64,000 bases of DNA, taken from assembly GCA_012813795.1 (NCBI GenBank), contig GCA_012813795.1_4087.1; one strand, 5' to 3'. The DNA is from a phage. Shown one piece after another: positions 4,709 to 64,000 of the stretch (position 1 is its first letter; each line of letters begins with the position of its first letter). The notes below the pieces were generated by a model. It had not been told where the DNA came from. It ran no database searches and saw only the letters and a program-made list of their open reading frames with translations. Both the position numbers and the translations under genes were made by a program.

Positions 4709-5323
4709 TGAATGTTCCTTAATAGTTAGTCATCCATCTCTTCGAGATGTCTGTTCGCTTCTAATACTACGTATTCTACGCGAATGATTAATAACTGTCA
4801 AGGACTTTTAATATTGACGGGATTTGAGGAAGGGATTTTTCTTCCCCCCGCTGGGAGGGGAATTTGACGCTGATGGTATCAGAGCTATTGCATTGAAGAT
4901 TACTCTTAATGAGTACGAAAGCGGGTCATCCTGTTTCTCTCTACTTCAGTTTCATATGACGGTCTACACTTTTAAACATAGTGTATCTTCATTAAGTATC
5001 TATGCAATCAAATACTTAATGTGAGTACTCAAATTTTGGACGCAACTTTCCTGTACAAAATTTGATAACTCTCCCTTAGATAATTCGTAAGGTGTTATCC
5101 TTATATGTCTATCTAGGAACCACCAGCCATCCTAACGTGGTTCTTTATAGTGCCGCATTGCCGTGAGGGGTTCATAATATGCCCACATCTGACGGGTTTC
5201 TTCTGCACTTCGCACTGCTGGACTGCTCAACTGCCCTCTACATTTTCGAGTGGATCAGGTTCATGTCATCCATGCCAACAGAATTGTACAATATCATTGT
5301 ATCATGAACATCCATTTTGTCCC

Positions 5324-14797: not shown

Positions 14798-15254
14798 GAC
14801 CGCTTACCTCATTTTCTTTCAATTTAGAACATACATAGAGAATAGCACCCAATTCGTCACGTGTCAAGTCCTGTAGGTCATATGCCACCTGCATCTGAAA
14901 GTAACTTTCATCACTAAGGTCAGTGAATTGGTCAACATTTTCTACATGCACAAAGAAGTTTTTGGGATCATCATTGTAATGTGAATTATAAGGTCTTATT
15001 GAAAACCCATGACTGTATATATCCAATACGAATTTAGCATTTAAATAGCCCTCTAAATCAAGAGATGCAAGAATCGAATTGGATCTTTCAAAAATGTCCA
15101 TGAAATTATTACGATAAGATCTTGCACAAATCAGTACATCACCGAGTTGGATATCAACTTTCTGTCCAGTCTTGGATTCAGCTAACCCAATGATGTACTC
15201 CATAAACCCAGGAAAATATTTCCTGGATTTAATATCTTTCAGTACTGGACGCAT
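14790..15254 (-). CDS. EE-x-FFQ motif family protein
   Basis: C-terminal DESYFQMQVAYDLQDLTRDEL. Confidence 0.55.
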   Translation of the reverse strand: MRPVLKDIKSRKYFPGFMEYIIGLAESKTGQKVDIQLGDVLICARSYRNNFMDIFERSNSILASLDLEGYLNAKFVLDIYSHGFSIRPYNSHYNDDPKNFFVHVENVDQFTDLSDESYFQMQVAYDLQDLTRDELGAILYVCSKLKENEVSGRV

Positions 15255-15769
15255 TACATGTACCTCGCAAAAGAATCAATCTCTTCTGCATCAATCTTAA
15301 TCATATCTTCTGTACTGCTTGTGAAGATGATATGTCCATCAGGTGTAAATTGCAACCTCTGATTGATTGAGTACTGCATATTACATGAATCATATTCACC
15401 CCAGTCAATGACATATGATGCCATTTTGTCATTTGCACCGAAGAACACAACATGAGTAACATCACGCTCTGACAGGCGATCTACCAATGAAGTTCCGTTG
15501 TAAAAATCAGCCTCCGTGTCTTTCTTAAAGACAATAGCAAACTTCTTCAGTACTGATTCAATTGACAAACCATTAGCATAACGATATGCACGTTGCGATT
15601 CATCACCAACATACATGTACAGAATGTCAGTGAACTTGAAGTTTTGAACTTCACAGTTTTCAAATACTAGTTGTACTTCTTCAATGTTACCAAATGCCAT
15701 TTTATATCTCCGTGTACTCATATGTAATTCGATTACATATAGAAACAATTTAAATGTCAACCCATTCAA
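15254..15769 (-). CDS. hypothetical protein
   Basis: 171-aa ORF inside the paralog array, motif not evident. Confidence 0.5.
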   Translation of the reverse strand: MNGLTFKLFLYVIELHMSTRRYKMAFGNIEEVQLVFENCEVQNFKFTDILYMYVGDESQRAYRYANGLSIESVLKKFAIVFKKDTEADFYNGTSLVDRLSERDVTHVVFFGANDKMASYVIDWGEYDSCNMQYSINQRLQFTPDGHIIFTSSTEDMIKIDAEEIDSFARYM

Positions 15770-18696: not shown

Positions 18697-19465
<769 letters not shown>

Positions 19466-19468
19466 ACA

Positions 19469-19601
<133 letters not shown>

Positions 19602-19602
19602 A

Positions 19603-19702
<100 letters not shown>

Positions 19703-19746
19703 ATAGGCACATACGGGTCTGCTTTTAAGCTACTGATTCGGGAATC

Positions 19747-19792
<46 letters not shown>

Positions 19793-19799
19793 CGTTCTT

Positions 19800-20018
<219 letters not shown>

Positions 20019-20027
20019 TAATACCCT

Positions 20028-20429
20028 TTAGTAGTTTAAGTCAGCGGCGTTGAACACACCGAGTGAAGTCTTACCACGTAGTTTAGGGGAAATGACATAT
20101 TTTGTCAATGTCTTTTTACCGTACCAGTACTCGAAATCTTTTTCTTCTACATACGGATTAGGGAAATCCCATTTGCGTTCTTTATGAATTTGCTTGGCCT
20201 GGACTTGAAGCTTTTCAACTTCATCTGGTGGTACAGTATCTACATTATTAAACTGCATGTACATACCTTTTAACCCATCAAGAATTAATTTTTCAGTTTC
20301 TTTAACTAATGTAATCTTTTCGATTCCAGTACTGATATTCATGTAGTCATCTACATAACCATTCCAGATAACAATCTCTGGATTACCTTCGATTCCCTGA
20401 AGCATCTTGATCAAGTCATTCTTTTTCAT
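20028..20429 (-). CDS. hypothetical protein
   Basis: 133-aa ORF. Confidence 0.5.
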   Translation of the reverse strand: MKKNDLIKMLQGIEGNPEIVIWNGYVDDYMNISTGIEKITLVKETEKLILDGLKGMYMQFNNVDTVPPDEVEKLQVQAKQIHKERKWDFPNPYVEEKDFEYWYGKKTLTKYVISPKLRGKTSLGVFNAADLNY

Positions 20430-20437
20430 TTGAATTC

Positions 20438-22078
<1,641 letters not shown>

Positions 22079-22263
22079 ATCACCAACTTTAATTAAAAAA
22101 ATGGATGGTGACGCTTTTAAACGCCGCTGTTAATTCAGCTTTATAACCACCCGTTTTAACTTGCCTTTCGGCTACCTTGACGTGGGGCGTACAGGCTACT
22201 AAAAGCAACTTCTGTAAACATATTTCCACGCCTTACCATTTTCATTATATCAGTACTTTTATC

Positions 22264-23385
<1,122 letters not shown>

Positions 23386-24776: not shown

Positions 24777-25105
24777 CCGAATGCACGAACACCAGCATAC
24801 ATAATCATACTACGTGGCTTACCAACTTCAGTAGTACGTAGAGCCTGTAGTAGCACCTTATCACTATCTTTACGGGATAGCATACCAGTACTATACAAGT
24901 AGTCATGTATTGTTGCTGCGGCGTGACCCATATTACCGACTAGTTCAAATATACCACGAATACGTGGGACGCTTGCAAAATCAGTTTTGAAACCTGCGGG
25001 AACAACAATTTTAATACCGTTATACTCGTATTCTAGATCTTCTAGAACTTTCCAACGTTGACCTTCGTTATTAATTAATTCTACTTTAAGATTACTTTTA
25101 AACAT
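24755..25105 (-). CDS. hypothetical protein (DUF1353-like motif)
   Basis: GFKTDFASVPR ... HDYLY resembles a phage-associated domain of unknown function. Confidence 0.4.
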   Translation of the reverse strand: MFKSNLKVELINNEGQRWKVLEDLEYEYNGIKIVVPAGFKTDFASVPRIRGIFELVGNMGHAAATIHDYLYSTGMLSRKDSDKVLLQALRTTEVGKPRSMIMYAGVRAFGWLFYKK

Positions 25106-25156
25106 AGTTACTCCTTAGATTAATCTATAGGTAACTATTTATTTTTTTTGAGAGTA

Positions 25157-25726
25157 TTAATATTCCTCAATTACTTCTAAGAAGGTATCCCATCCAGTAT
25201 AAGTAAAGTGGTCAAAATATTGTTTCTCACCACCGACCATATAAACTTCAATTGTACCATGATCAAATGCATCTTTTGGTTTACGTACAGCAGTTACAAT
25301 TGCTTTATGAGTGAAGTTATTGTAATCAGTGTACAGTACAATATCATTTACTTTAATCGTATCAGGTGTATAGATGGAAGCATTACGATTTAGGTTGTGC
25401 AGATAATGCTCAGCATACTCTTTGTTCTCAATAACACCATATACGTTACCAGGGAAAACCCTGCTACCATTACGTGTTAAGGCCCAGCCAGCCCCAACTT
25501 CTTGCAGTTCGTACACAAAATGTGTACACACTTTATCAACTTCGTGCAGTTCCCAAAAGTCACCATCGAGGTTTGAGAATTTGTAGATAGTATTAAGTTT
25601 TTCTCCTTCAAACGCAAGAAGAGCCACACCAATTTGAACTGTACCATCGTTTAACATAATGTTAAAGAGGTTGTTTGTGTTGAACATACGTTCAGCATTT
25701 TTTGGATTAAACTTCACTAAATTCAT
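25157..25726 (-). CDS. hypothetical protein
   Basis: 189-aa ORF downstream of promoter 25754..25782. Confidence 0.5.
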   Translation of the reverse strand: MNLVKFNPKNAERMFNTNNLFNIMLNDGTVQIGVALLAFEGEKLNTIYKFSNLDGDFWELHEVDKVCTHFVYELQEVGAGWALTRNGSRVFPGNVYGVIENKEYAEHYLHNLNRNASIYTPDTIKVNDIVLYTDYNNFTHKAIVTAVRKPKDAFDHGTIEVYMVGGEKQYFDHFTYTGWDTFLEVIEEY

Positions 25727-25753
25727 TTTATATTCTCCAGTGTTATTGGAACT

Positions 25754-25782
25754 ATTATATCAGTACTGGATAGTACTGTCAA
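25754..25782 (-). promoter_or_regulatory. sigma70-type early promoter
   Basis: TTGACAGTACTATCCAGTACTGATATAAT on minus strand (17-bp spacer). Confidence 0.55.
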
Positions 25783-26171
25783 ATGTTTTTCATAACTTCT
25801 ACAATGAAATCAATTTTATCTTTGAGTTTATAAGGGATACATCCCGCATCACGCTCTAAAGAAGTAATTTTTTGGAACTCGTCTTCGTCTGATTCGGATA
25901 CATAGAATGGACTAGGTATAAATGATTCATCATCTGGAAGCTTCTTTGTTCGGTCAAACAATACTGCTGGGTTCACAAAATAAAATGCATTGATATCTGG
26001 GCGATAATACACACAATCAACCTTATAGTACTGATGTAACCACAAAGACAAAGAATATGTCCTTACATTTCCAATTGGTTTTGAGCCGGAAGCTATGTAA
26101 TTTATATTGTTTTTATCTTGAACCATTTCATAGATGTAATCAATGAGTTTTTGTAAGTCAGTATCAGACAT
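25779..26171 (-). CDS. hypothetical protein
   Basis: 130-aa ORF. Confidence 0.5.
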   Translation of the reverse strand: MSDTDLQKLIDYIYEMVQDKNNINYIASGSKPIGNVRTYSLSLWLHQYYKVDCVYYRPDINAFYFVNPAVLFDRTKKLPDDESFIPSPFYVSESDEDEFQKITSLERDAGCIPYKLKDKIDFIVEVMKNI

Positions 26172-35050: not shown

Positions 35051-35473
35051 TTACCCTTTCAATTGTTTCTCGATATGGAATGTATTGTATATCTTGTTGT
35101 ACACAGTGTCAATAATTTTCTTAACGTCTGCTAACTCTTCGACAGTTGTGCACACATCACTGATAGTACTTAACTGAAACAACTCTTCTTCAGTACTGTA
35201 CAGTGTTATATCAAATTTGTTGCGAAGTTCATCTTCGATAACGTATTGATTTGTGACAGTATATGATGCAATTTCAACATCCAACAACTTATCACCTTCA
35301 AAAACATTATAAATGAACACAAATGTTAGTTCTTCACTCTCATCATCACTGTAGCTTATATATACATTGTAATTTTCACCATGAAAATCAAGATTGTGCT
35401 CAAACCTATTATCAGGTACTAGTGAATCTATAGGCATTCCCTTTAACAAATCAAAACAATCTCTTGGGTTCAT
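35051..35473 (-). CDS. EE-x-FFQ motif family protein
   Basis: C-terminal STEEELFQLSTISD. Confidence 0.55.
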   Translation of the reverse strand: MNPRDCFDLLKGMPIDSLVPDNRFEHNLDFHGENYNVYISYSDDESEELTFVFIYNVFEGDKLLDVEIASYTVTNQYVIEDELRNKFDITLYSTEEELFQLSTISDVCTTVEELADVKKIIDTVYNKIYNTFHIEKQLKG

Positions 35474-35910
35474 TTTACATCCATTTGTCGCTGTTCATCA
35501 ATAAAAAAGATGTTAAAGATAGCTGAACGCATTTTTGTTAGCGTACTCATGAGATATTTTAAATCCTTGAAATCAATATTAAATGTTTGAACCAGTGATT
35601 CCTGGAAATACCCCTCTTCAGTAGTGCATTCACTTACATTTTGTACCTGATATATTTTGATAATATTATCATCACGAAGCATAATTTCTAAGTTATTGTT
35701 ATTAACATTGTGCACGATATACATCTGATCACCATATACCAGATTATTAACTGATAATGATAATACATTATTTTCAATAATAATCTTAAAGCAATTCTGA
35801 CCTACGTATGTGGTATTTTTAATTTGTTCTTCAGGATCAGTCAAACCATCGTTGATAAATTTAATTTTATTAAAAGTACTGATATATTTTTTAACTAATT
35901 TAATGTTCAT
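35470..35910 (-). CDS. EE-x-FFQ motif family protein
   Basis: C-terminal TTEEGYFQESLVQTF. Confidence 0.55.
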   Translation of the reverse strand: MNIKLVKKYISTFNKIKFINDGLTDPEEQIKNTTYVGQNCFKIIIENNVLSLSVNNLVYGDQMYIVHNVNNNNLEIMLRDDNIIKIYQVQNVSECTTEEGYFQESLVQTFNIDFKDLKYLMSTLTKMRSAIFNIFFIDEQRQMDVK

Positions 35911-36287
35911 TGCTTTACCTTAGATAGAGCATAATTCATTATTGACTTGATTTTTTGTAAATTGTCATATGACATTACATGTTTTTCAATTAATGATAGT
36001 TGAAATAATTCTTCTTCAGTTGAATTCAAGTAAACTTCTGAACCATCATAATTTTCAAAATCATAAAGGTATGAAAGACGGTCATCTATATACCAACCAA
36101 TCCATTCAATGGTGTTTCTTTCTTTGAAAACACAAGTATATGGATTATCTCTTGAATCTAAGGTTATGGTTAAACGTAAACATGAATTTGATTGTTGTAC
36201 ACTCTGTCTCCCATAATATACAGTAACCTCATCGGTTTCAATTGATTTATACAAAGCATCAATTTTTCTATCCAATTCATCTACCAT
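35907..36287 (-). CDS. EE-x-FFQ motif family protein
   Basis: C-terminal STEEELFQLSLIEKH. Confidence 0.55.
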   Translation of the reverse strand: MVDELDRKIDALYKSIETDEVTVYYGRQSVQQSNSCLRLTITLDSRDNPYTCVFKERNTIEWIGWYIDDRLSYLYDFENYDGSEVYLNSTEEELFQLSLIEKHVMSYDNLQKIKSIMNYALSKVKQ

Positions 36288-52688: not shown

Positions 52689-53231
52689 TTACCATTTCAG
52701 AAATTCGTTCACATCGAGATCATACTTCAATGAGTCAACCATATGCAAACCAATCAGAAACAGACAATATGAGGCTACAGAACTACCACGCCCTAAGCCC
52801 CAGAAGATGTTGTGCTCTTCCATATAATCTACCAACCATATCATACAACGCAATAGCTTTGTCATATTATATTGTTCGTATAAATCAATTTCGTATTCCA
52901 CACGCTGTTTTGCTTCAGGTGTGGAACACTTTTGTAAAAAGAATTCTCTTAGATTGATATTGTCATACATTGGATCATAACGCCATAACTCATGATTACT
53001 ATCATGGTCAATTGTATAATCCAACATACGTTGCTCTAGTCCAAATTTTTTACAGTTATCGTTAAACTTCAAACGCTCTTGTTCATCTATATCTTGTAAT
53101 TGTAAGTACTGAATATCTGAACCACAATTCATAGCATAAACTACAGCATTTAAATTACATTTAACATCACCATTGGGACTTATATATCTGTTTCCTTGAA
53201 CTTTCATTTGTCTTTTTACTATCCTCTTCAT
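52689..53231 (-). CDS. hypothetical protein
   Basis: 180-aa ORF; 65-nt overlap with upstream ORF, so the start may be an internal Met. Confidence 0.45.
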   Translation of the reverse strand: MKRIVKRQMKVQGNRYISPNGDVKCNLNAVVYAMNCGSDIQYLQLQDIDEQERLKFNDNCKKFGLEQRMLDYTIDHDSNHELWRYDPMYDNINLREFFLQKCSTPEAKQRVEYEIDLYEQYNMTKLLRCMIWLVDYMEEHNIFWGLGRGSSVASYCLFLIGLHMVDSLKYDLDVNEFLKW

Positions 53232-53475
53232 CTGATAGATAAGAATTCATATCAAAAATACATGGATCAGCTTCCTCGTATGTATCTTTCTCTTTTCTAC
53301 CTTGTCGTAAAGTCATTTCTTCATAGCACTGATTCAGTACTATCTGCATGTTACCAATGATAGAATCACTCATACCAGCGGCACGAGCGGAACTAATACG
53401 TAAACTTTGATCATTAATCTTTTGTTGGAGTTCTTTATCACTCATACCAGAAGGGTCATAAAATGGATTAAACAT
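53167..53475 (-). CDS. hypothetical protein
   Basis: 102-aa ORF. Confidence 0.45.
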   Translation of the reverse strand: MFNPFYDPSGMSDKELQQKINDQSLRISSARAAGMSDSIIGNMQIVLNQCYEEMTLRQGRKEKDTYEEADPCIFDMNSYLSDEEDSKKTNESSRKQIYKSQW

Positions 53476-53487
53476 ATTTTTCTCCTA

Positions 53488-55875
53488 TTATATTATGTCA
53501 TTCTGTAAAGCAATTCTAAATGTATCATGTACATAACGTTCATGGTCCTGTGCAAAGTATCCAAATTCAACAGCAGTTACTTCGAATTCAGTACTAACCA
53601 TAGAACTATGCTCATTGTTTTGTAACAACATTTGGAAAAATGCTTCACCCTTACCAGGCAAACAGTATGCTACTGGAATGATAGGCATGAATTTCTTCTC
53701 AATACCATCTTCGATATATGGATGGTTCATGAAGCGTGGAACTGTGTCAATCATCTCATCACTTATGCCTGGTATAGCATCCACATATAGACCACGATTG
53801 ACTAAATCAGTTGGGTCTTTAACCAAGTTTGTTGTATCTTCACCAACAGCCTTATAGATGTTTTGGCGTAAACCAAACAACTCAGCAAGTAAACCATTAT
53901 CTACATTAGTGTAAATTCGAGGGTTGGTGGATACTACAACTTGTGTTCCTTCTGGATGAAGTTCTCTAAACACCAAATCATACAGAAGATTCCCTTTGTT
54001 GTCAAGTGCTGACATGATTTTATAATTACCAATAACCATCTTGAATTTACCATTGGGAATAGTAGCCCCTGATGGATCTATAATATTCTCACGGAGAACT
54101 TTTTTCAAATCACTTAAGTTGGTGTAATTATAGTTCTGATTTACAAAGTTTTCTTTCAATAGAATTCTAGGAACTTTCTGTAACCCATATCTATCATCAG
54201 ATTGACGATGGAATCCAAAATTAGCAAATGTTTGAGTACTGATGCATTTAAACCAATCACGCTCAAACTGTACCGATGGTACAATATGTGAACTCAAATG
54301 ATTTTGTCCCAACCCACGAACGATTTTTAATTTGAAATCACCAATAACACTACTACCCTCGGTGTCATACACTTCAACCTTGAAATTCAATTTTATATCA
54401 TCATTGGCACTAAAATCAGTACTTAATGCATATGCAGTTCCTACAAGATAACCGTCAGGGGTAAGGTCCAATCCATATTTAGTTATATCATCACCACCTG
54501 CCAATACACAAGATACTTGATTCTTACTATTAGTGAGTATTCGTGGGTATACCGTATGTCCGAAATATTCACCAACATGGATGGTTCCCAAGTCTGGATC
54601 GGTGATTATCTGTATAGATGAACCTTCTGCGGCGTTTTCCAAAAATCGGAACATACGTTTCTCACCAATAATACCACTACCTAAAGATACGTCATAATAA
54701 CCTAAATCATTCCAATCTGAACTTTTGAATAATGGTTTTATCATACCTTCATCATATTCACCACTAATAACATATGGATAAACAACGTTATCCCTTAACT
54801 GGTATAAATGGTTAGGTTTGGGTTTTTCATCAGTTGCAGCAATAGTAGATACATCATTTGGACATACCCACATTTGATATGCTTTGAAACGTTGGTCGAT
54901 TGCAAAACGTTCAGCGAGTGTAATGTATGTTTTAAGAATATCTACAATTTCAATCTTAAAGTAAACATCCGTTGGTTCGGATTCATGTAAGAATGTTTGT
55001 AAGAATTGCCCATTAGGGTTAAAGGAAAGACCACTTTTTGTTATCTTCCCAGTGTCATCAACTATGTTAACTTTAACTTCTTTATTAATTCCATCAACTG
55101 GAAATGCTAAATCATCAGGGCGTAGGTAAGCTGCTTTACCTGTAACGTGTCTTGTTGGTAAATCCTGTTCAGTTATATCCAGTAGGCGATACGCTGGAAA
55201 GAACACACGAGGACTAGTATCGGTCGCACTATCTACATTTGGCTGGTATGGACGTTTACGACCGAAGCCTTGAATGAACAAAGTACTGTCAGAACCATAT
55301 TCAATATCACCAATGCAATATAATCGATCGTCATCTGTGATAGTTAATCCAGGGGTTACCCATATTTCTTTACTATCAAAAGTTACTGTTGCTTTGTTTG
55401 CACGCAACAAACCAGATGGTGAAATGTTCCCAAAATGCATAACATTAACTGCCTGTAAATTGAAAACAACACTCTCAACGTTGTTAAATGTACCATCACG
55501 CTTACAATGCAACTTTAGATAATAAACATCTTCACTGATTATAGTACTTGGAAGATAAAAATTATTCTTTTGTATTCTACACTTATGTCTTCCATTTAAA
55601 AACTGGTTTCCAGTGGTTCCGTCCGATAGTGGGACTAAATTTCGTGGGTCATTACCAACAAATAATGAATAATGGTTTTCAGCGTTAAAAACATTACCAA
55701 CATTATCTAAACATTGTATAGTGAAAATCATCTCTAAGTATTCGTTTTCACTTAGTGTATAGCTATCACCTGTAGTTCCTTCTTTATTGATACTTAATCT
55801 AATAAGAATGTCAGATCCTTCTTGAATATATTGAGTATCAGCCTTTAAATCCCAATACGGGGTAAAAGATGCCAT
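53488..55875 (-). CDS. large hypothetical protein
   Basis: 795 aa; no Walker or GHKL motif seen. Confidence 0.6.
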   Translation of the reverse strand: MASFTPYWDLKADTQYIQEGSDILIRLSINKEGTTGDSYTLSENEYLEMIFTIQCLDNVGNVFNAENHYSLFVGNDPRNLVPLSDGTTGNQFLNGRHKCRIQKNNFYLPSTIISEDVYYLKLHCKRDGTFNNVESVVFNLQAVNVMHFGNISPSGLLRANKATVTFDSKEIWVTPGLTITDDDRLYCIGDIEYGSDSTLFIQGFGRKRPYQPNVDSATDTSPRVFFPAYRLLDITEQDLPTRHVTGKAAYLRPDDLAFPVDGINKEVKVNIVDDTGKITKSGLSFNPNGQFLQTFLHESEPTDVYFKIEIVDILKTYITLAERFAIDQRFKAYQMWVCPNDVSTIAATDEKPKPNHLYQLRDNVVYPYVISGEYDEGMIKPLFKSSDWNDLGYYDVSLGSGIIGEKRMFRFLENAAEGSSIQIITDPDLGTIHVGEYFGHTVYPRILTNSKNQVSCVLAGGDDITKYGLDLTPDGYLVGTAYALSTDFSANDDIKLNFKVEVYDTEGSSVIGDFKLKIVRGLGQNHLSSHIVPSVQFERDWFKCISTQTFANFGFHRQSDDRYGLQKVPRILLKENFVNQNYNYTNLSDLKKVLRENIIDPSGATIPNGKFKMVIGNYKIMSALDNKGNLLYDLVFRELHPEGTQVVVSTNPRIYTNVDNGLLAELFGLRQNIYKAVGEDTTNLVKDPTDLVNRGLYVDAIPGISDEMIDTVPRFMNHPYIEDGIEKKFMPIIPVAYCLPGKGEAFFQMLLQNNEHSSMVSTEFEVTAVEFGYFAQDHERYVHDTFRIALQNDII

Positions 55876-55956
55876 TTTATTTCTCCATAGCTACTAATAT
55901 CTATAGATTATTTATATAAAGGAGGAAGGAAGACCCATAGGGTCTTCCATTATATA

Positions 55957-57369
55957 TTAATCTTCAGACTTAGGTGTAAAGTCCATTTTTAGTAATTCTT
56001 GTAGTTCTTCTTTATAGATATTCCAGATTTTATCTTGGTTATTAAGTAAATCATTATAACTATCCATTAGATCTAGATTATCTTGAATGTCTTTCAGTAC
56101 TACATCGTAATTATCTTTCGTCCAGCGATAAGATGGGAAGTTTACAATACTCTGGATATTCTCAGATGTAGCTTCGATTTCAGTATTAAGCGAAGTTACA
56201 AATTCAACCATTTCAGCACGGTTTGCAAAGCCTTTTACTTTACCAATCATGTCATTATCAAAACACTCTTTGATGAGAATCTTATAACGAACTTCGGCTG
56301 CACAGTCTTCCAGTTTCTTCTCATATCGCTTCACATAGTATTTGAAACGGAAATTTACGAAATCTTTAATCAGGTCAAGTGTACTGTCATATACACGAAC
56401 TTTACCATTTTCACCAAGAACAGTTAACAATTGAGTCATTTTCTTATTCAATCCAAAATACTCAATTACATCAGCTTCGGTCCATTTTTGAGAAATTCCG
56501 CGTGGTAGTTTGATCGTGATATCAATAACATCAGTACTATCATTATCGTAATCACGAATATCACCATCATCACTCATCTTGATTAGTTTTTCGATAAACT
56601 TTTCAATACTATAATTGGGTGGAAGACCTGTCACTTTAACAGTACTTGCGTCAATTACCTGTGCTTTACCATAAAATTCATATTTGTTTTCGTCTAGTTT
56701 AGTTACTATATCACTAGCACCAACCGATGCATAATATGGTGTCATTTCTTTAAGGGGTTTCCCTTCAATTGCACGAATACAGTTCTTTATTACATCCTCA
56801 ATCTTATGTGGAAGAATTGTACTCTTATACCCTACTGACATACTATCATTACCAAACAATGCTAATGGGATGATAGGTAGGAAGTGTACTGGTTCCATTG
56901 TAGTACCATCATAGTTCTCTTTCATTGGAATTATATCCATATCACGTAGAACTAATGCTTCAGTCGTTTTTGTCTTTTTGACGTAGGTATAACGAGCAGA
57001 TGCCGGAGTACTGTTAACTTGTGTCCCGAAACCACCACGCTTACCAATCAGTGGGTAGTTGTTAGCAACTGGACTAGCTAGGTTTTGTAATGTTCCTGAT
57101 GCAGATGTGTCACCATGAACGTAAATCCCATCACTGATCATACGACCTGCACATGAAACAGTTTTAATCTCCCCACTGATTTTGGATAATGTGAAGATTG
57201 CTTTACGTTGAGAACTCTTGAGTCCGTCAATCCCTGGGATAGCACGGTCAAGTGTGTACATTGAGTATTCTAATGATGTAGTATTGACATAATCTGAACT
57301 TTTATAATCAAGTAAAGTTAGAGTTAATTCATCAACATTTGTATTAGTGTTTTTCTTACTTTTAGCCAT
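55957..57369 (-). CDS. gp52: DNA topoisomerase II medium subunit (T4 gp52-like, GyrA-type)
   Basis: RAIPGIDGLKSSQRKAIF and active-site region SARYTYV. Confidence 0.85.
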   Translation of the reverse strand: MAKSKKNTNTNVDELTLTLLDYKSSDYVNTTSLEYSMYTLDRAIPGIDGLKSSQRKAIFTLSKISGEIKTVSCAGRMISDGIYVHGDTSASGTLQNLASPVANNYPLIGKRGGFGTQVNSTPASARYTYVKKTKTTEALVLRDMDIIPMKENYDGTTMEPVHFLPIIPLALFGNDSMSVGYKSTILPHKIEDVIKNCIRAIEGKPLKEMTPYYASVGASDIVTKLDENKYEFYGKAQVIDASTVKVTGLPPNYSIEKFIEKLIKMSDDGDIRDYDNDSTDVIDITIKLPRGISQKWTEADVIEYFGLNKKMTQLLTVLGENGKVRVYDSTLDLIKDFVNFRFKYYVKRYEKKLEDCAAEVRYKILIKECFDNDMIGKVKGFANRAEMVEFVTSLNTEIEATSENIQSIVNFPSYRWTKDNYDVVLKDIQDNLDLMDSYNDLLNNQDKIWNIYKEELQELLKMDFTPKSED

Positions 57370-57417: not shown

Positions 57418-59382
57418 TTATTCCATCCAGTTTTTACGATCATCAGCACGTTTCTTGTTGAAAATCAAATCTAATGTTTCACCAAGACGACCGTCATCAG
57501 TAATTGCTACTGCAACACTATTCGTAAATGCATCGCGGAAGTTACTTTTTTCGAGTGTTCCTAAACCTTTCGCACGAGTTGCTTTCCACCCTTTCCAATC
57601 TTCAGGAATATATTCATGGACGTTATGACCATAAAAATACTTAGATTCCTTACCTTTCTCCAAGATAATAAATGGAGTTTTGAATACGTATACAAACGGA
57701 TTATCAGGATCTTGGAATAATTCGGGCCAGAATTTGTACAAGAAGTTACAAACTAGTGCACCAATGTTCTTACCATCCTCATCTTCGTCCGCACAGATAT
57801 ATAGCTTACCGTAATTCAAATCAGCACGGTCAGCTTTAACTCCAGGGACCAAGTTGATGCTTGCCATTATATCATGCAATGCCATAGAATCCATTAATTC
57901 TTTGGTTTTCTCATTCCCACTAACGTTCATAATCTTACCACGCAATGGGAGGATACCATGAATACTAGGAATACGAGCACTTGCCATGTTGGAAATAGCA
58001 GAGTCACCTTCCGCAACCAATAGAATACATTGTGAACGGTCAGTTCCAGTACTATCAAGTAGTTTTGCAACTTTACCTTTCAAAAGTTTCTTGGCAAGGC
58101 GACGGTCTTCTTCTGCGTCTTTCTTATTAGTACGGGCAGCACAACGTTCAAAAATCTCATCAACCCATTCTTTATTTTTCTTGACCAATTCATCAAACCA
58201 GTCAGTACTCATAGCTTGCTGAATAGGACGAATTACATTTTCATTAGTCAACTTAGATTTAATCTGTGAGTTGAATGATGGTGCTTTCATTGTAGTTACA
58301 TTGTAAATCAACAAACCTTCTTCAATATCAGAACGGTTTGGTTTCATCTTACGCTTCTTCGCTTCTTTCTCTAATGCAGTTCCTACCCCTAAAGAGAAGA
58401 ATTTCTTGAAGGTATCTAGATGTGTACCACCATCAAATGCTGGAGCATTATTCACAAGACCATGCATATGGAAGTTTGTGTTCATACCAGATACAGCATT
58501 AGGTACAATATAAAACGTACTATTGAAATTGAATGATTCATCTTTAACATTCAATGACATTAGTTTTGAAGCATTAAAGAGTGCCTTTTCTGTGCTTCCT
58601 TTAATTGCAATACGTTTACCATTCAAGAAGATTTTGTATGTTGGGTTCGCTGCTGCCATTTCTTTTAGAATACTATAAAGTAATTCAGTTGGTAGCTTGC
58701 GATTAGGAAATACTTCTTTACTTAGGGTAAAGCGAATAGTTGTACCAGTTTTATCGGATTGTACTTTTCGAATAGTTGGTTCATGTACATGAAGTTCAGG
58801 GAACATAATTGTACCTTCTTCAAACTTCTGTGTATATTTGTACATACCATCATAACCGTCATTACTGGATTGCGTTTTATATGGACGTCCGGTTCGGTGA
58901 ATTTCAAGTTCTGCTTTAGAGCTAACAATCATAGCCACAGAACCACCTAGACCGTTTTGACCGATTGTTTCATCACGCTTAGAATCATCAAAGTTACGAC
59001 CAGTTTTAGTTTCAGTCATTACCATCGTACAGAGGTTTTTCTCATACTCTGGGACATAATCAATCGGAATACCACGACCATTATCACTGATTTCGAAGGA
59101 AAGGTCTTCTTCATTGAAATCAACTTTCAGTACTGGTTCTTTCGTACCAGCTTTTTTGAATTCATCAAGACTGTTATCAATAATTTCACGAGTTGCAGTA
59201 AGAATTGCAGGAACCCATTCCATATTTTTTACAGCATAATCATTTTCACCAAAAATCAGTACTTGACTTTCGTGAATAGAACGAGAACCAAGATACATCT
59301 CAGTACGTAGACGAGCATGTTGATAATCGTTTAGACGTTGAACGTCATGTTCTTGTAGAACAGCACTTTCTTTCTTAGCCAT
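57418..59382 (-). CDS. gp39: DNA topoisomerase II large subunit (T4 gp39 + gp60 equivalent, GyrB-type)
   Basis: GHKL motif ISDNGRGIP; Toprim motifs LLVAEGDSA and ICADEDEDG; 654 aa is consistent with an unsplit 39/60 gene. Confidence 0.85.
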   Translation of the reverse strand: MAKKESAVLQEHDVQRLNDYQHARLRTEMYLGSRSIHESQVLIFGENDYAVKNMEWVPAILTATREIIDNSLDEFKKAGTKEPVLKVDFNEEDLSFEISDNGRGIPIDYVPEYEKNLCTMVMTETKTGRNFDDSKRDETIGQNGLGGSVAMIVSSKAELEIHRTGRPYKTQSSNDGYDGMYKYTQKFEEGTIMFPELHVHEPTIRKVQSDKTGTTIRFTLSKEVFPNRKLPTELLYSILKEMAAANPTYKIFLNGKRIAIKGSTEKALFNASKLMSLNVKDESFNFNSTFYIVPNAVSGMNTNFHMHGLVNNAPAFDGGTHLDTFKKFFSLGVGTALEKEAKKRKMKPNRSDIEEGLLIYNVTTMKAPSFNSQIKSKLTNENVIRPIQQAMSTDWFDELVKKNKEWVDEIFERCAARTNKKDAEEDRRLAKKLLKGKVAKLLDSTGTDRSQCILLVAEGDSAISNMASARIPSIHGILPLRGKIMNVSGNEKTKELMDSMALHDIMASINLVPGVKADRADLNYGKLYICADEDEDGKNIGALVCNFLYKFWPELFQDPDNPFVYVFKTPFIILEKGKESKYFYGHNVHEYIPEDWKGWKATRAKGLGTLEKSNFRDAFTNSVAVAITDDGRLGETLDLIFNKKRADDRKNWME

Positions 59383-59482
59383 TTTAATTCCTTTTAGTGT
59401 CTCTGTGTCTTGTGATATTGTATCACGAAAAGTTTATTTGTCTCAAAAAGAATTCGGAGAGCATAAAGCCCCCCGAATATAA

Positions 59483-59869
59483 TTACAAAAGAAGTAATCC
59501 AAAAATGATAACATAATGGGTAAAATGATGAATCATTTGATCATACCCTAACCACCACCAAAATTCAGCATCTTGTGGTGTGTGTTGTTTAGAGCCAACA
59601 ACTTTAACTCGGTCCATTACAAAATGAACAACTGCATCAATTGCAAGAAGCATGAAAAACACCTTCCACGTTGTTCCAATATAACAAGCAAAAATTGCAA
59701 TAATTATTGCAGTTCCTAATACATGAACAGCAACGTGTGCTGCCAATGGTAGAAACCACCCATGCTCTTTAAATTTACCAAGCATGTATTTGCCTTGGAA
59801 TATATAATCACACAGAAAATGTTTTATTTGAAATAATGCCAATAGCCCAAAAACTAAAAGTATACTCAT
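59483..59869 (-). CDS. hypothetical membrane protein
   Basis: 128 aa with several TM helices. Confidence 0.5.
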   Translation of the reverse strand: MSILLVFGLLALFQIKHFLCDYIFQGKYMLGKFKEHGWFLPLAAHVAVHVLGTAIIIAIFACYIGTTWKVFFMLLAIDAVVHFVMDRVKVVGSKQHTPQDAEFWWWLGYDQMIHHFTHYVIIFGLLLL

Positions 59870-59878
59870 ATAGTATCC

Positions 59879-60733
59879 TTATTTAACAAGGAGTAATTGT
59901 AACTCAGCACTTGGGCTTGTCTCATCATCACTCCAATATTTGTGAACTTTTTCTGGTGTTGCCTTTGCTAAAACTTCACCACCACCAACAATGTACACTT
60001 GATGTGATCCAATTAGTCTAGTCCAAAATTTAATTGCATCATCAGTGTGTAAACTATCACTAAGTATAGCGTAGCCGTGCTTTAGCATATCCATAAAGAT
60101 AGTGTAAATGATACCTTTTGTGCCTGTTTTAGATGCAGTTGCTGCGATTTCGAAAACATTCTGAACACCTAGTACTGCATCATTAGAAGTATAACCACTA
60201 ACAATAGCTAGTTGTTTACCGCTCTTATCATATGCGATAAAACCAGTACCATTCTTATTCTGATAAACGTCATAATCATTGTGCTTAGCAAAGATTACCA
60301 TGTTATGCTTACCTGTCATTTCTGCTGTCTTATCTACAAACTCATCACGGTCTTGGCCCTGAAAACTATCAAAGCGTTGTGGCATTTCTTCCAACTTCTC
60401 AGTATTTTCATAGAAGTGATGTTCTTTATTTTGACAACACTGTTCACACTCACAATCATCTGCGTGTACATCCATTGTATCATCAATTTCAGGATTGTCC
60501 TGTGCAATTTCTGCATCTTGAATGATATCCACCCAACCTTTCATTGAAGATTCAGTAGTTTTCTTTTTAACGTGTTGGGGCAACTTCGCCCCCTTTTTAA
60601 GATTTCCAGCTTTTTCATCAGCATGATTCCATTCCTTAGCAGTATCTGTTGATACACCATGTGATTTTGCAATCTCTGGGTCATGTGCCATAGCAGCAAA
60701 TAGTCTTGCTTGACTCTTAGATTTAGATGGCAT
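59879..60733 (-). CDS. hypothetical protein
   Basis: 284-aa ORF. Confidence 0.5.
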   Translation of the reverse strand: MPSKSKSQARLFAAMAHDPEIAKSHGVSTDTAKEWNHADEKAGNLKKGAKLPQHVKKKTTESSMKGWVDIIQDAEIAQDNPEIDDTMDVHADDCECEQCCQNKEHHFYENTEKLEEMPQRFDSFQGQDRDEFVDKTAEMTGKHNMVIFAKHNDYDVYQNKNGTGFIAYDKSGKQLAIVSGYTSNDAVLGVQNVFEIAATASKTGTKGIIYTIFMDMLKHGYAILSDSLHTDDAIKFWTRLIGSHQVYIVGGGEVLAKATPEKVHKYWSDDETSPSAELQLLLVK

Positions 60734-61658
60734 TTTTAATATCTCCTATTAAGTTCTCTAATATAGTTCGGTGATTTTGTTTATAATTTATTCGTATCAA
60801 ATTGATATTGTTAATATTACAAAAATTAGTTTTTATCAAATCACGTTTTTTAATATTAATCAATTCGTCAACACCACCCCAATGTTCCTTTTCGACGTAA
60901 TGCTGTTCACCATCATATTCTATACATATATTATAATCTGGTAAATAAAAATCAAAAGGTAATGGGTTTATATTCTTACAATCATCAAACTTATATTCTG
61001 TTATGTATTTAATTTTATTAATAGTGAGTATGTGACTAATATCTTGAACAGCTTTGGATATTTTATTATTACATAAGGAACAACCTTTTCCAGCTTGATG
61101 GTCAGAAAGTCTTTGGAAATAATAACCATGATTTGGGCAACCAATTTCAACAATATCATTCATATATTCATAATCTAATTTAGAATAATCATACTTATTA
61201 TTATGTATAAAATTACATTTATTAATAACTTTTTCTTTAGATTTTTTTCTTTTATTACCAATTACCACATTAGCACATTTTTTACATCCCTTCCCATCCA
61301 AATGAGAATTAACGGTTTGATAAAACATACCATGATTTTCACATGGACAAAATATTTTGATGGTTGTGGAATGTGATATTTTTTCGCAATATTCATATAT
61401 ATACTTATTGTTATGTATAACATTTGAACGTTCTATAAATTTATCATATGTTAATTTCGCATTACCTGAACACTCTGGACAACCGCCACCATTTCTATGA
61501 TAATAAGCATCTTGTACAAATTCACCATGAAAAGGACATATTATAATTATATTTGATTTTATTTTTATCAAATCAGTTTGAGTGTAATCATAAAAGAAAT
61601 TATGTTTTAAATGACATGAAATTATATATTCTTTCAATGTTATTTTAGGTCGCCCCAT
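60723..61658 (-). CDS. putative homing endonuclease (zinc-finger repeats plus Vsr-like nuclease domain)
   Basis: Three repeats of HNNKY...C..HG.F...H..G.GC..C; C-terminal FDFYLPDYNICIEYDGEQH resembles PD-(D/E)xK; gene is much more AT-rich than flanks. Confidence 0.5.
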   Translation of the reverse strand: MGRPKITLKEYIISCHLKHNFFYDYTQTDLIKIKSNIIIICPFHGEFVQDAYYHRNGGGCPECSGNAKLTYDKFIERSNVIHNNKYIYEYCEKISHSTTIKIFCPCENHGMFYQTVNSHLDGKGCKKCANVVIGNKRKKSKEKVINKCNFIHNNKYDYSKLDYEYMNDIVEIGCPNHGYYFQRLSDHQAGKGCSLCNNKISKAVQDISHILTINKIKYITEYKFDDCKNINPLPFDFYLPDYNICIEYDGEQHYVEKEHWGGVDELINIKKRDLIKTNFCNINNINLIRINYKQNHRTILENLIGDIKNAI

Positions 61659-61661
61659 GAA

Positions 61662-64000
<2,339 letters not shown>

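Follow-up and report, generated by a model that had tools for sequence, protein, structure and literature searches.

The closest described relatives of the gene considered here were reported in 2025 (PMC12350094, 'Presence of group II introns in phage genomes'), where three to five CapR/DUF4379/DUF723-like domains of ~60 amino acids (aa), followed by an EDxHD/Vsr-like domain of ~100 aa, were found to characterize an outgroup of the EDxHD/Vsr homing endonuclease genes with thousands of members, most of them unannotated. The same architecture, with three modules and a Vsr-fold domain, is encoded by an open reading frame (ORF) on the minus strand of a 64,000-nucleotide stretch of phage DNA (contig GCA_012813795.1_4087.1 of GenBank assembly GCA_012813795.1; hereafter, the window). 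The window is Asteriusvirus-type jumbo coliphage DNA; the closest relative in the databases, Escherichia phage A4 (ON286972), is ~98–99% identical to it over most of its length. We regard the ORF as probably a free-standing homing endonuclease gene in which a CapR/DUF723/DUF4379-like zinc-finger array is joined to a nuclease of the Vsr-like (EDxHD-type) family, while our confidence in the present-day activity of the predicted endonuclease is lower than that in the family assignment. Genes of this kind have already been described, and the present ORF adds one member; however, the published examples are carried by introns, of group I or group II, in a virion RNA polymerase gene, whereas this one is free-standing, intergenic and located in a virion-structural operon.

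The prototype of the EDxHD group, I-Bth0305I (PDB 3R3P, PMC3239194), has its Vsr-like catalytic fold in common with the present protein, and its 'EDxHD' site comprises the counterparts of Vsr D51, D97 and H69 together with an acidic residue at the F62 position. I-Bth0305I (which dimerises) is encoded within an intron in recA, binds DNA through NUMOD/helix-turn-helix repeats and has Asn where Vsr has H64, whereas the present protein is free-standing, carries zinc-finger modules and has Asp249 at that position. Free-standing Hef endonucleases also belong to the Vsr-like family (PMC3239194), and the Hef and Hef-like genes of T4-related and Ackermannviridae phages, for which PMC3239194 and PMC2988022 cite Sandegren et al. 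2005, are intergenic and placed by conserved phage genes, as here, although Hef itself is likened by description. The 'Hef-like' F-LimIII of phage LIMEstone1 (PMC3296691) aligns with residues 201–290 of the present protein (30% identity over 91 aa, BLASTP pairwise E-value 1e-5), and the alignment takes in the D...E-x-(N/D)-G...H motif. However, the nuclease domain of F-LimIII is situated mid-protein (residues 263–342 of 547) rather than at the C-terminus, and pairwise comparison gave no significant alignment to the present zinc-finger region. Zinc-finger arrays are likewise the modular DNA-binding regions of T5orf172 homing endonuclease genes, in which recombination between repeats yields in-frame deletions (PMC10448857). 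The T5orf172 genes of ICP1 and other phages have the same kind of zinc-finger modules, vary in their presence and lie by essential or structural genes, and their in-frame deletions parallel the A4 allele described below, but their nuclease is of the T5orf172/GIY-YIG type and not a Vsr-like PD-(D/E)xK fold.

In E. coli Vsr itself, the zinc site is made up of C66, H71, C73 and C117, and F67 is an intercalating aromatic residue. Vsr is a stand-alone protein of ~156 aa that is linked to dcm and functions in T:G repair, whereas the present protein is 311 aa long, has an attached DNA-binding array and virion-gene neighbours, and would function in homing. Moreover, an acidic residue takes the place of F62, and the Vsr stretch C66-F67-W68-H69 corresponds to E251-Q252-H253, which is one residue shorter. 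Intercalating residues W68 and W86 and a zinc-binding motif have been described for Vsr (PMC3239194). The features of the gene are as follows.

60723..61658, minus strand: predicted homing endonuclease ORF, complete and including the stop codon; 311 aa with an ATG start, from the ORF list
61461..61649, minus strand: zinc-finger module 1, residues ~4–66; candidate ligands C41, H44, H54, C60 and C63
61266..61454, minus strand: zinc-finger module 2, residues ~69–131; candidate ligands C104/C106, H109, H119, C125 and C128
61062..61244, minus strand: zinc-finger module 3, residues ~139–199; candidate ligands C174, H177, H187, C193 and C196
60726..61061, minus strand: C-terminal Vsr-like (EDxHD-type PD-(D/E)xK) nuclease domain, residues ~200–311
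60900..60953, minus strand: core catalytic stretch PFD236FYLPDYNICIE247YD249G250EQH253, with invariant residues and a register shared with Vsr

One line of evidence for horizontal acquisition is base composition. The original prediction, made from the sequence alone, had called the ORF markedly more AT-rich than its flanking genes, and the difference is in fact extreme for this genome. At 25.4% GC, and 16.0% GC at third codon positions (GC3), in a window of 34.5% GC, the ORF ranks last on both measures among the 79 ORFs that are 100 aa or longer (z = -2.9 for GC and -2.4 for GC3), and no 936-bp sliding window has a lower GC content (mean 34.5%, standard deviation 2.1%). The second most AT-rich spot of the window consists of two adjoining small ORFs of 146 and 126 aa (35470–36287, minus strand, 27–29% GC), for which Pfam gave no match.

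The N-terminal 200 residues are occupied by three zinc-finger modules, as had been predicted. In a motif scan, the pattern C-x2(4)-H-x9-H-x5-C-x2-C was found three times, at residues 41–63, 104/106–128 and 174–196, yielding three C-H-H-C-C modules within the three to five CapR-like domains of ~60 aa described in PMC12350094. An AlphaFold2 model built from 60 homologues (mean predicted local distance difference test score, pLDDT, 93.4) presents each module of ~65 aa, at pLDDT >90, as a helix, a beta-hairpin and a short helix with a zinc knuckle, and module 3 modelled alone reached a pLDDT of 91.7. The modules retain 71–73% mutual DNA identity at a spacing of 204–210 nt, and the zinc ligands are invariant across the 60 aligned homologues. 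While the query's own Pfam matches are below the cut-off (DUF723, E-value 0.0035, residues 29–64; DUF4379 treble-clef, E-value 0.058, residues 97–130), the 60 homologues match DUF723 in 57 cases, DUF4379 in 56 and CapR in four. Neither NUMOD nor T5orf172 or GIY-YIG matches were obtained with the query or the 60 homologues. The ~65-aa modules have no counterpart among solved structures.

A Vsr/PD-(D/E)xK-like motif had been predicted for the C-terminus, with a fold-level check of that domain suggested, and the model bears this out. Residues ~200–311 are modelled as an alpha/beta domain that is predicted to have the Vsr fold, common to the EDxHD homing endonuclease I-Bth0305I; with the AlphaFold2 model, Foldseek returned Vsr at a probability of 1.0 and also retrieved the Vsr-like domain of AbaSI, and the best structural match of the nuclease domain is E. 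coli Vsr. A sub-threshold Pfam match of the query to PvuRts1I-like_N was also seen, and the N-terminal region covered by that family is the Vsr-like cleavage domain in the family member AbaSI (PMC4081097). Across the 60 homologues, D236, E247, G250, H253 and K276 are invariant and D273 is nearly so. The catalytic stretch is in register with PD51FVVDEYRCVIF62TH64G65CFWH69 of Vsr, with D236 and G250 spaced like Vsr D51 and G65, and D273 precedes the last beta-strand by 13 residues, the same distance as Vsr D97. Mapped by spacing and fold, D236, E247, H253 and D273 would thus supply all elements of the composite EDxHD active site.

The family to which the protein belongs appears to be very large. 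More than 4,900 homologues were found at E-values of 1e-5 or below in a large protein collection, with a varying number of modules and, among 120 listed, lengths of 305–538 aa; several are called 'very-short-patch-repair endonuclease' by JGI. In a phage collection, tblastn located 2,163 places, distributed over 988 records and frequently several to a genome, with identity never exceeding 60%. The protein matches PHROG 559 (labelled 'HNH endonuclease') with an E-value of 3.7e-59, and its C-terminal domain matches phrog_9084 ('homing endonuclease') with an E-value of 1.7e-30. The HNH label, which some RefSeq homologues also carry, was considered and set aside, as the beta-beta-alpha-metal fold with its H-N-H motif was not found. 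The nuclease domain alone finds staphylococcal phage genes annotated as 'group I intron-associated VSR homing endonuclease' and 'group I intron protein', and the C-terminal profile matches the ORF194 'homing nuclease' of Bacillus phage 0305phi8-36 with an E-value of 8.8e-15. ORF194 (170 aa; 14861–15373 of that genome, our L003) has the same ExxG-QH-type Vsr-like nuclease domain, and the genome of 0305phi8-36 also encodes I-Bth0305I (PMC3239194). A phmmer search with ORF194 against PDB sequences did not retrieve the I-Bth0305I entry, and the two would therefore be distinct Vsr-like subtypes in one genome.

Presence or absence in related phages, proposed as a check, provides further evidence for acquisition by insertion, and is best followed with the two neighbouring virion genes in view.

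61662..63251, minus strand: upstream neighbour, 529-aa protein; virion structural by annotation in A4, PBECO4 and 121Q
59879..60733, minus strand: downstream neighbour, virion structural protein of 284 aa; the putative target region is the conserved 5' end of this gene (MPSKSKSQA...)

The site is empty in phages PBECO4 and 121Q, where the stop and start codons of the flanking virion genes overlap (TAATG) and the junction reads GGGAGTTTATAATGCC. The junction falls within ~246.7–249.1 kb of the PBECO4 record NC_027364 and at genes 50/51 of 121Q. In the alignment, the window carries ~929 extra bases exactly at this junction, and these are the endonuclease ORF. Approximately 20 further Asteriusvirus records match the region with a span ~1.4 kb shorter than that of the window, a shortfall equal to the endonuclease gene plus a segment with a DUF3307 gene, and thus appear to lack both. 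A second filled allele was found in an independently assembled contig (L005, Logan ERR7425836), in which the endonuclease ORF has zero differences from that of the window while the 8.1 kb around the gene are 98.4% identical. Phage A4 has a decayed allele: a 204-bp ORF at the junction, A4_78 (67 aa), consists of residues 1–32 joined in frame to residues 277–311, the intervening 732 bp having been deleted between two copies of a 14-nt direct repeat.

60830..60843: 3' copy of the 14-nt direct repeat, plus-strand TTTTTATCAAATCA; encodes D273-L-I-K276 of the predicted active site and is an end-point of the A4 deletion
61562..61575: 5' copy of the 14-nt direct repeat, codons D29-L-I-K32; 100% identity and a spacing of 732 nt in the repeat search

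The A4 remnant is without all zinc fingers and without D236, E247, D249 and H253, and its kept ends are identical to the window. A4_78 (USL83745.1; A4 4824–5027) stands in the database as a 'hypothetical protein', an annotation that could be corrected to endonuclease remnant. Conservation of the gene at this site in every relative, together with ordinary codon usage, would have spoken against the original prediction; instead, the gene is polymorphic at a fixed site with precise boundaries, filled in the window and L005, decayed in A4 and empty in PBECO4 and 121Q.

The same site is occupied in a second, distant lineage. A 332,621-bp metagenomic contig of a Munch-like jumbo phage (L006) encodes a 305-aa homologue, P0051, that is 50% identical to the present protein and similarly AT-rich (26.6% GC and 15.7% GC3, in a locus of 37.7% GC). 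It lies right after the stop codon of the homologous 527-aa gene and right before the ATG of a gene starting MPSKSR, and the flanking proteins of the two lineages are 30%, 58–63% and 80% identical. In Salmonella phage Munch, which is related to L006, the site is empty and reads TGTAAATGCC. Among more distant jumbo phages (GAP32, fHe-Yen9-04, Hallingskeid, RCIP0023, JNE01 and others), the best-scoring family copy of each record examined lies far from the virion junction, and a peptide-pattern scan of IMG/VR found only distant relatives (27–51% identity) and no additional same-site copies.

The element is inserted where the stop and start codons of the virion operon overlap by 1 nt, and is fitted closely to this point.

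61659..61664, minus strand: upstream junction; TAA stop of the 529-aa gene and a 3-nt spacer (TTC) before the endonuclease ATG
60723..60747, minus strand: downstream junction; AGGAG at 60743–60747, with the 3' end of the ORF overlapping the ATG of the 284-aa gene by 11 nt

The L006 homologue has the same downstream arrangement, AAGGAGATGACATGCC. In both filled lineages, the endonuclease gene uses the old Shine-Dalgarno sequence of the junction, and a new AGGAG at its own 3' end serves the downstream virion gene. On a speculative reading, the element would in this way have taken over the translational coupling of the operon, and only in-frame decay, such as that of A4, would be tolerated, so that its loss would be slowed.

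Taken with the precedents above, presence or absence, fold and composition support a horizontally acquired, free-standing homing endonuclease, as was originally predicted, and a mechanism may be proposed. During mixed infection, the zinc-finger array would bind a long asymmetric DNA site in a phage without the gene, at or near the stop/start junction of the virion genes for the 52x-aa and 'MPSKSK...' proteins. The Vsr-like domain would then cut nearby; of its putative catalytic residues, D236 and D273 would coordinate metal, H253 would act as the general base, and E247 and D249 would add acidic groups. Repair of the break by recombination from the carrier genome would copy the gene in, and the insertion would split or alter the site, rendering carriers immune. 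The 5' coding sequence of the 284-aa neighbour (which has homologues in 73 phage records) is conserved across the window, L006, PBECO4 and 121Q in the alignment and is the best-conserved DNA around the junction in all four lineages. Together with the presence of two diverged endonucleases at one junction, this suggests that the target is the junction itself or the first tens of bp of the downstream gene.

Several points weigh against this interpretation. No experimental evidence of cleavage or homing by this protein or by any other member of the zinc-finger/Vsr-like subfamily was found in the literature, nor was any biochemically characterised member. No co-conversion tract was detected, and the flanks are no closer to A4 than are other parts of the window; the 0–5 differences from A4 per 500 bp seen around the gene are typical of most of the window, and because divergence is so low throughout these parts, the comparison offers no evidence on co-conversion either way. 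At the sequence level, phmmer and profile searches of PDB sequences gave no match to any solved structure, I-Bth0305I (3R3P) and Vsr included, and the only hits of the 60-sequence profile to solved structures were chance matches to haemagglutinin. An hhalign comparison of the C-terminal alignment with E. coli Vsr was not significant (probability 0.2), and it placed G250 on G65. The residue equivalences to Vsr and I-Bth0305I consequently rest on spacing plus fold.

Among the alternatives to a homing endonuclease, the one that survives best, though we think it unlikely, is that the gene is an intact-looking relic of a past invasion, which is no longer mobile because susceptible targets are gone or specificity has been lost, and which is decaying as in A4. 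Indeed, a deletion has already removed the entire functional core in A4, the closest relative, which indicates that the gene is dispensable, and both the lack of a detectable co-conversion tract and the restriction to a single carrier lineage within Asteriusvirus are in keeping with a relic. A relic would not, however, be expected to keep all invariant catalytic and zinc-ligand residues free of any frameshift or stop codon, nor to be unchanged in L005 within surroundings that have diverged, and the many empty-site phages in the same host range would be targets.

It is also conceivable, but decidedly improbable, that the nuclease has been domesticated for competition or defence, whether by excluding co-infecting phages or by attacking satellites or host DNA, and is not a selfish element. 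Endonuclease-derived proteins with similar zinc-finger arrays have been co-opted in phage-satellite conflicts (PMC10448857), and the occurrence of a homologue at the same junction in two divergent lineages also counts in favour of this view. Such a role fits poorly with a sporadic distribution and precise absence from most relatives, with a deletion in A4 that occurred without replacement, with the extreme base composition, and with neighbours that are virion proteins rather than linked defence or counter-defence genes. Still less probable is a CapR-like, sequence-specific regulator of the virion operon with an inactive nuclease domain; CapR is a transcriptional repressor made from the same type of zinc-finger domain (PMC10448857) and the gene does sit within that operon, but its nuclease core is conserved at every family-invariant position, relatives without the gene express the same operon, and the A4 remnant has no zinc fingers left. 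Finally, a very-short-patch mismatch repair nickase of the Vsr type, for which the best structural match and the JGI names of several homologues might be cited, is barely credible given that Glu251 stands at the C66 zinc-site position and none of the domain's cysteines and histidines (H209, C227, C245, H253, H259, C280 and H296, the complete set) falls at a Vsr zinc-site position, that the intercalating W68 (PMC3239194) has no aromatic counterpart in the stretch E251-Q252, that sequence similarity to Vsr is not significant, that a three-module DNA-binding array is attached, that there is no adjacent dcm-like methyltransferase and that the gene shows presence/absence polymorphism.

The homing endonuclease reading is therefore preferred, and its genomic setting differs from that first described. 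The ORF had been placed next to the topoisomerase II genes, just downstream of the large-subunit gene, and the other features of the region are as follows.

59483–59869, minus strand: DUF3307 protein, 128 aa, membrane-like; between the virion operon and the topoisomerase genes
59452..59478, minus strand: terminator-like hairpin with an 11-bp stem (6 GC pairs) and a T-run; divides the virion/endonuclease unit from the topoisomerase II genes
57418–59382, minus strand: topoisomerase II large subunit
55957–57369, minus strand: topoisomerase II medium subunit

In the order of transcription, the 529-aa gene (for which Pfam gave no match) is followed by the endonuclease ORF, the 284-aa gene, the DUF3307 gene, the hairpin, and the large- and then the medium-subunit genes of topoisomerase II. 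The endonuclease ORF thus sits within a virion-structural transcription unit, two genes and a hairpin away from the large-subunit gene. Because it lies inside the virion operon, the proximity to topoisomerase II holds in a loose sense but not as immediate adjacency; and because every gene concerned is encoded on the minus strand, the ORF precedes the topoisomerase genes in the direction of transcription, lying upstream and not downstream of them. Munch has an annotated terminator at the position equivalent to the hairpin. Overall, the window is essentially one co-oriented gene block: of its 79 ORFs that are 100 aa or longer, 78 are encoded on the minus strand. The DUF3307 gene is present in the window and A4 and not in PBECO4 or 121Q, constituting a second insertion/deletion polymorphism ~850 bp from the endonuclease gene.

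A promoter scan found sites that were not enriched over shuffled sequence (26 vs 25.1), and a TATAAT 2 nt before the endonuclease ATG cannot serve this gene. RNA folding of the start region revealed no structure hiding the ribosome-binding site (z = 0.0). The only Rfam matches in the window are five tRNAs at 19–23 kb; with neither an intron nor any other RNA detected nearby, the gene is accordingly free-standing and not intron-borne. It has no paralogue elsewhere in the window. A second, unrelated free-standing homing endonuclease gene (21124–21681, minus strand, 185 aa) matches NUMOD4 (E-value 7e-11) and HNH_3 and adjoins the five-tRNA cluster at 19132–23260; the segment around it, at ~20001–22500, has no counterpart in the syntenic part of A4.

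Signs of recombination were also seen in the wider comparison. Between L005 and the window, 20 differences are clustered at 60008–60284 inside the 284-aa virion gene, in a patch of 280 bp, while on either side, to ~57.0 and ~63.7 kb, L005 differs at 0–4 positions per 300 bp. L005 shares the PBECO4/121Q allele at roughly half of these 20 positions, and the differences mark a small recombination patch 440–730 bp from the endonuclease gene. Relative to A4, the tracts at 53000–57000 (~10%) and 25001–26000 (~20%) are divergent, the remainder of the window differing by 1.5% or less. The former, which ends ~3.7 kb from the endonuclease gene, covers the topoisomerase II medium-subunit gene in its C-terminal part, along with the large structural gene next to it. 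Judged from sequence divergence, both tracts look like recombination mosaicism, with no link to the endonuclease gene established.

The significance of the locus lies partly in the family that it represents, which appears to be very large and is inconsistently labelled in the databases as HNH endonuclease, Vsr repair endonuclease or hypothetical protein. If each module reads a short block of DNA, comparison of the present protein and P0051 with the conserved 'MPSKSK' 5' end could reveal a modular, possibly re-programmable recognition code, a speculative prospect with the chances against it, and such a code could be coupled to a compact Vsr-like cleavage domain. Moreover, the locus provides an experimental system that is ready to use and based on culturable E. 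coli phages, with an intact allele, a natural dead allele in A4 and many empty-site phages, to which the diverged endonuclease at the same site in another genus adds a second comparison. With this allelic series and the diverged same-site homologue, it is directly feasible to map the target, to carry out homing crosses and to dissect the zinc-finger modules.

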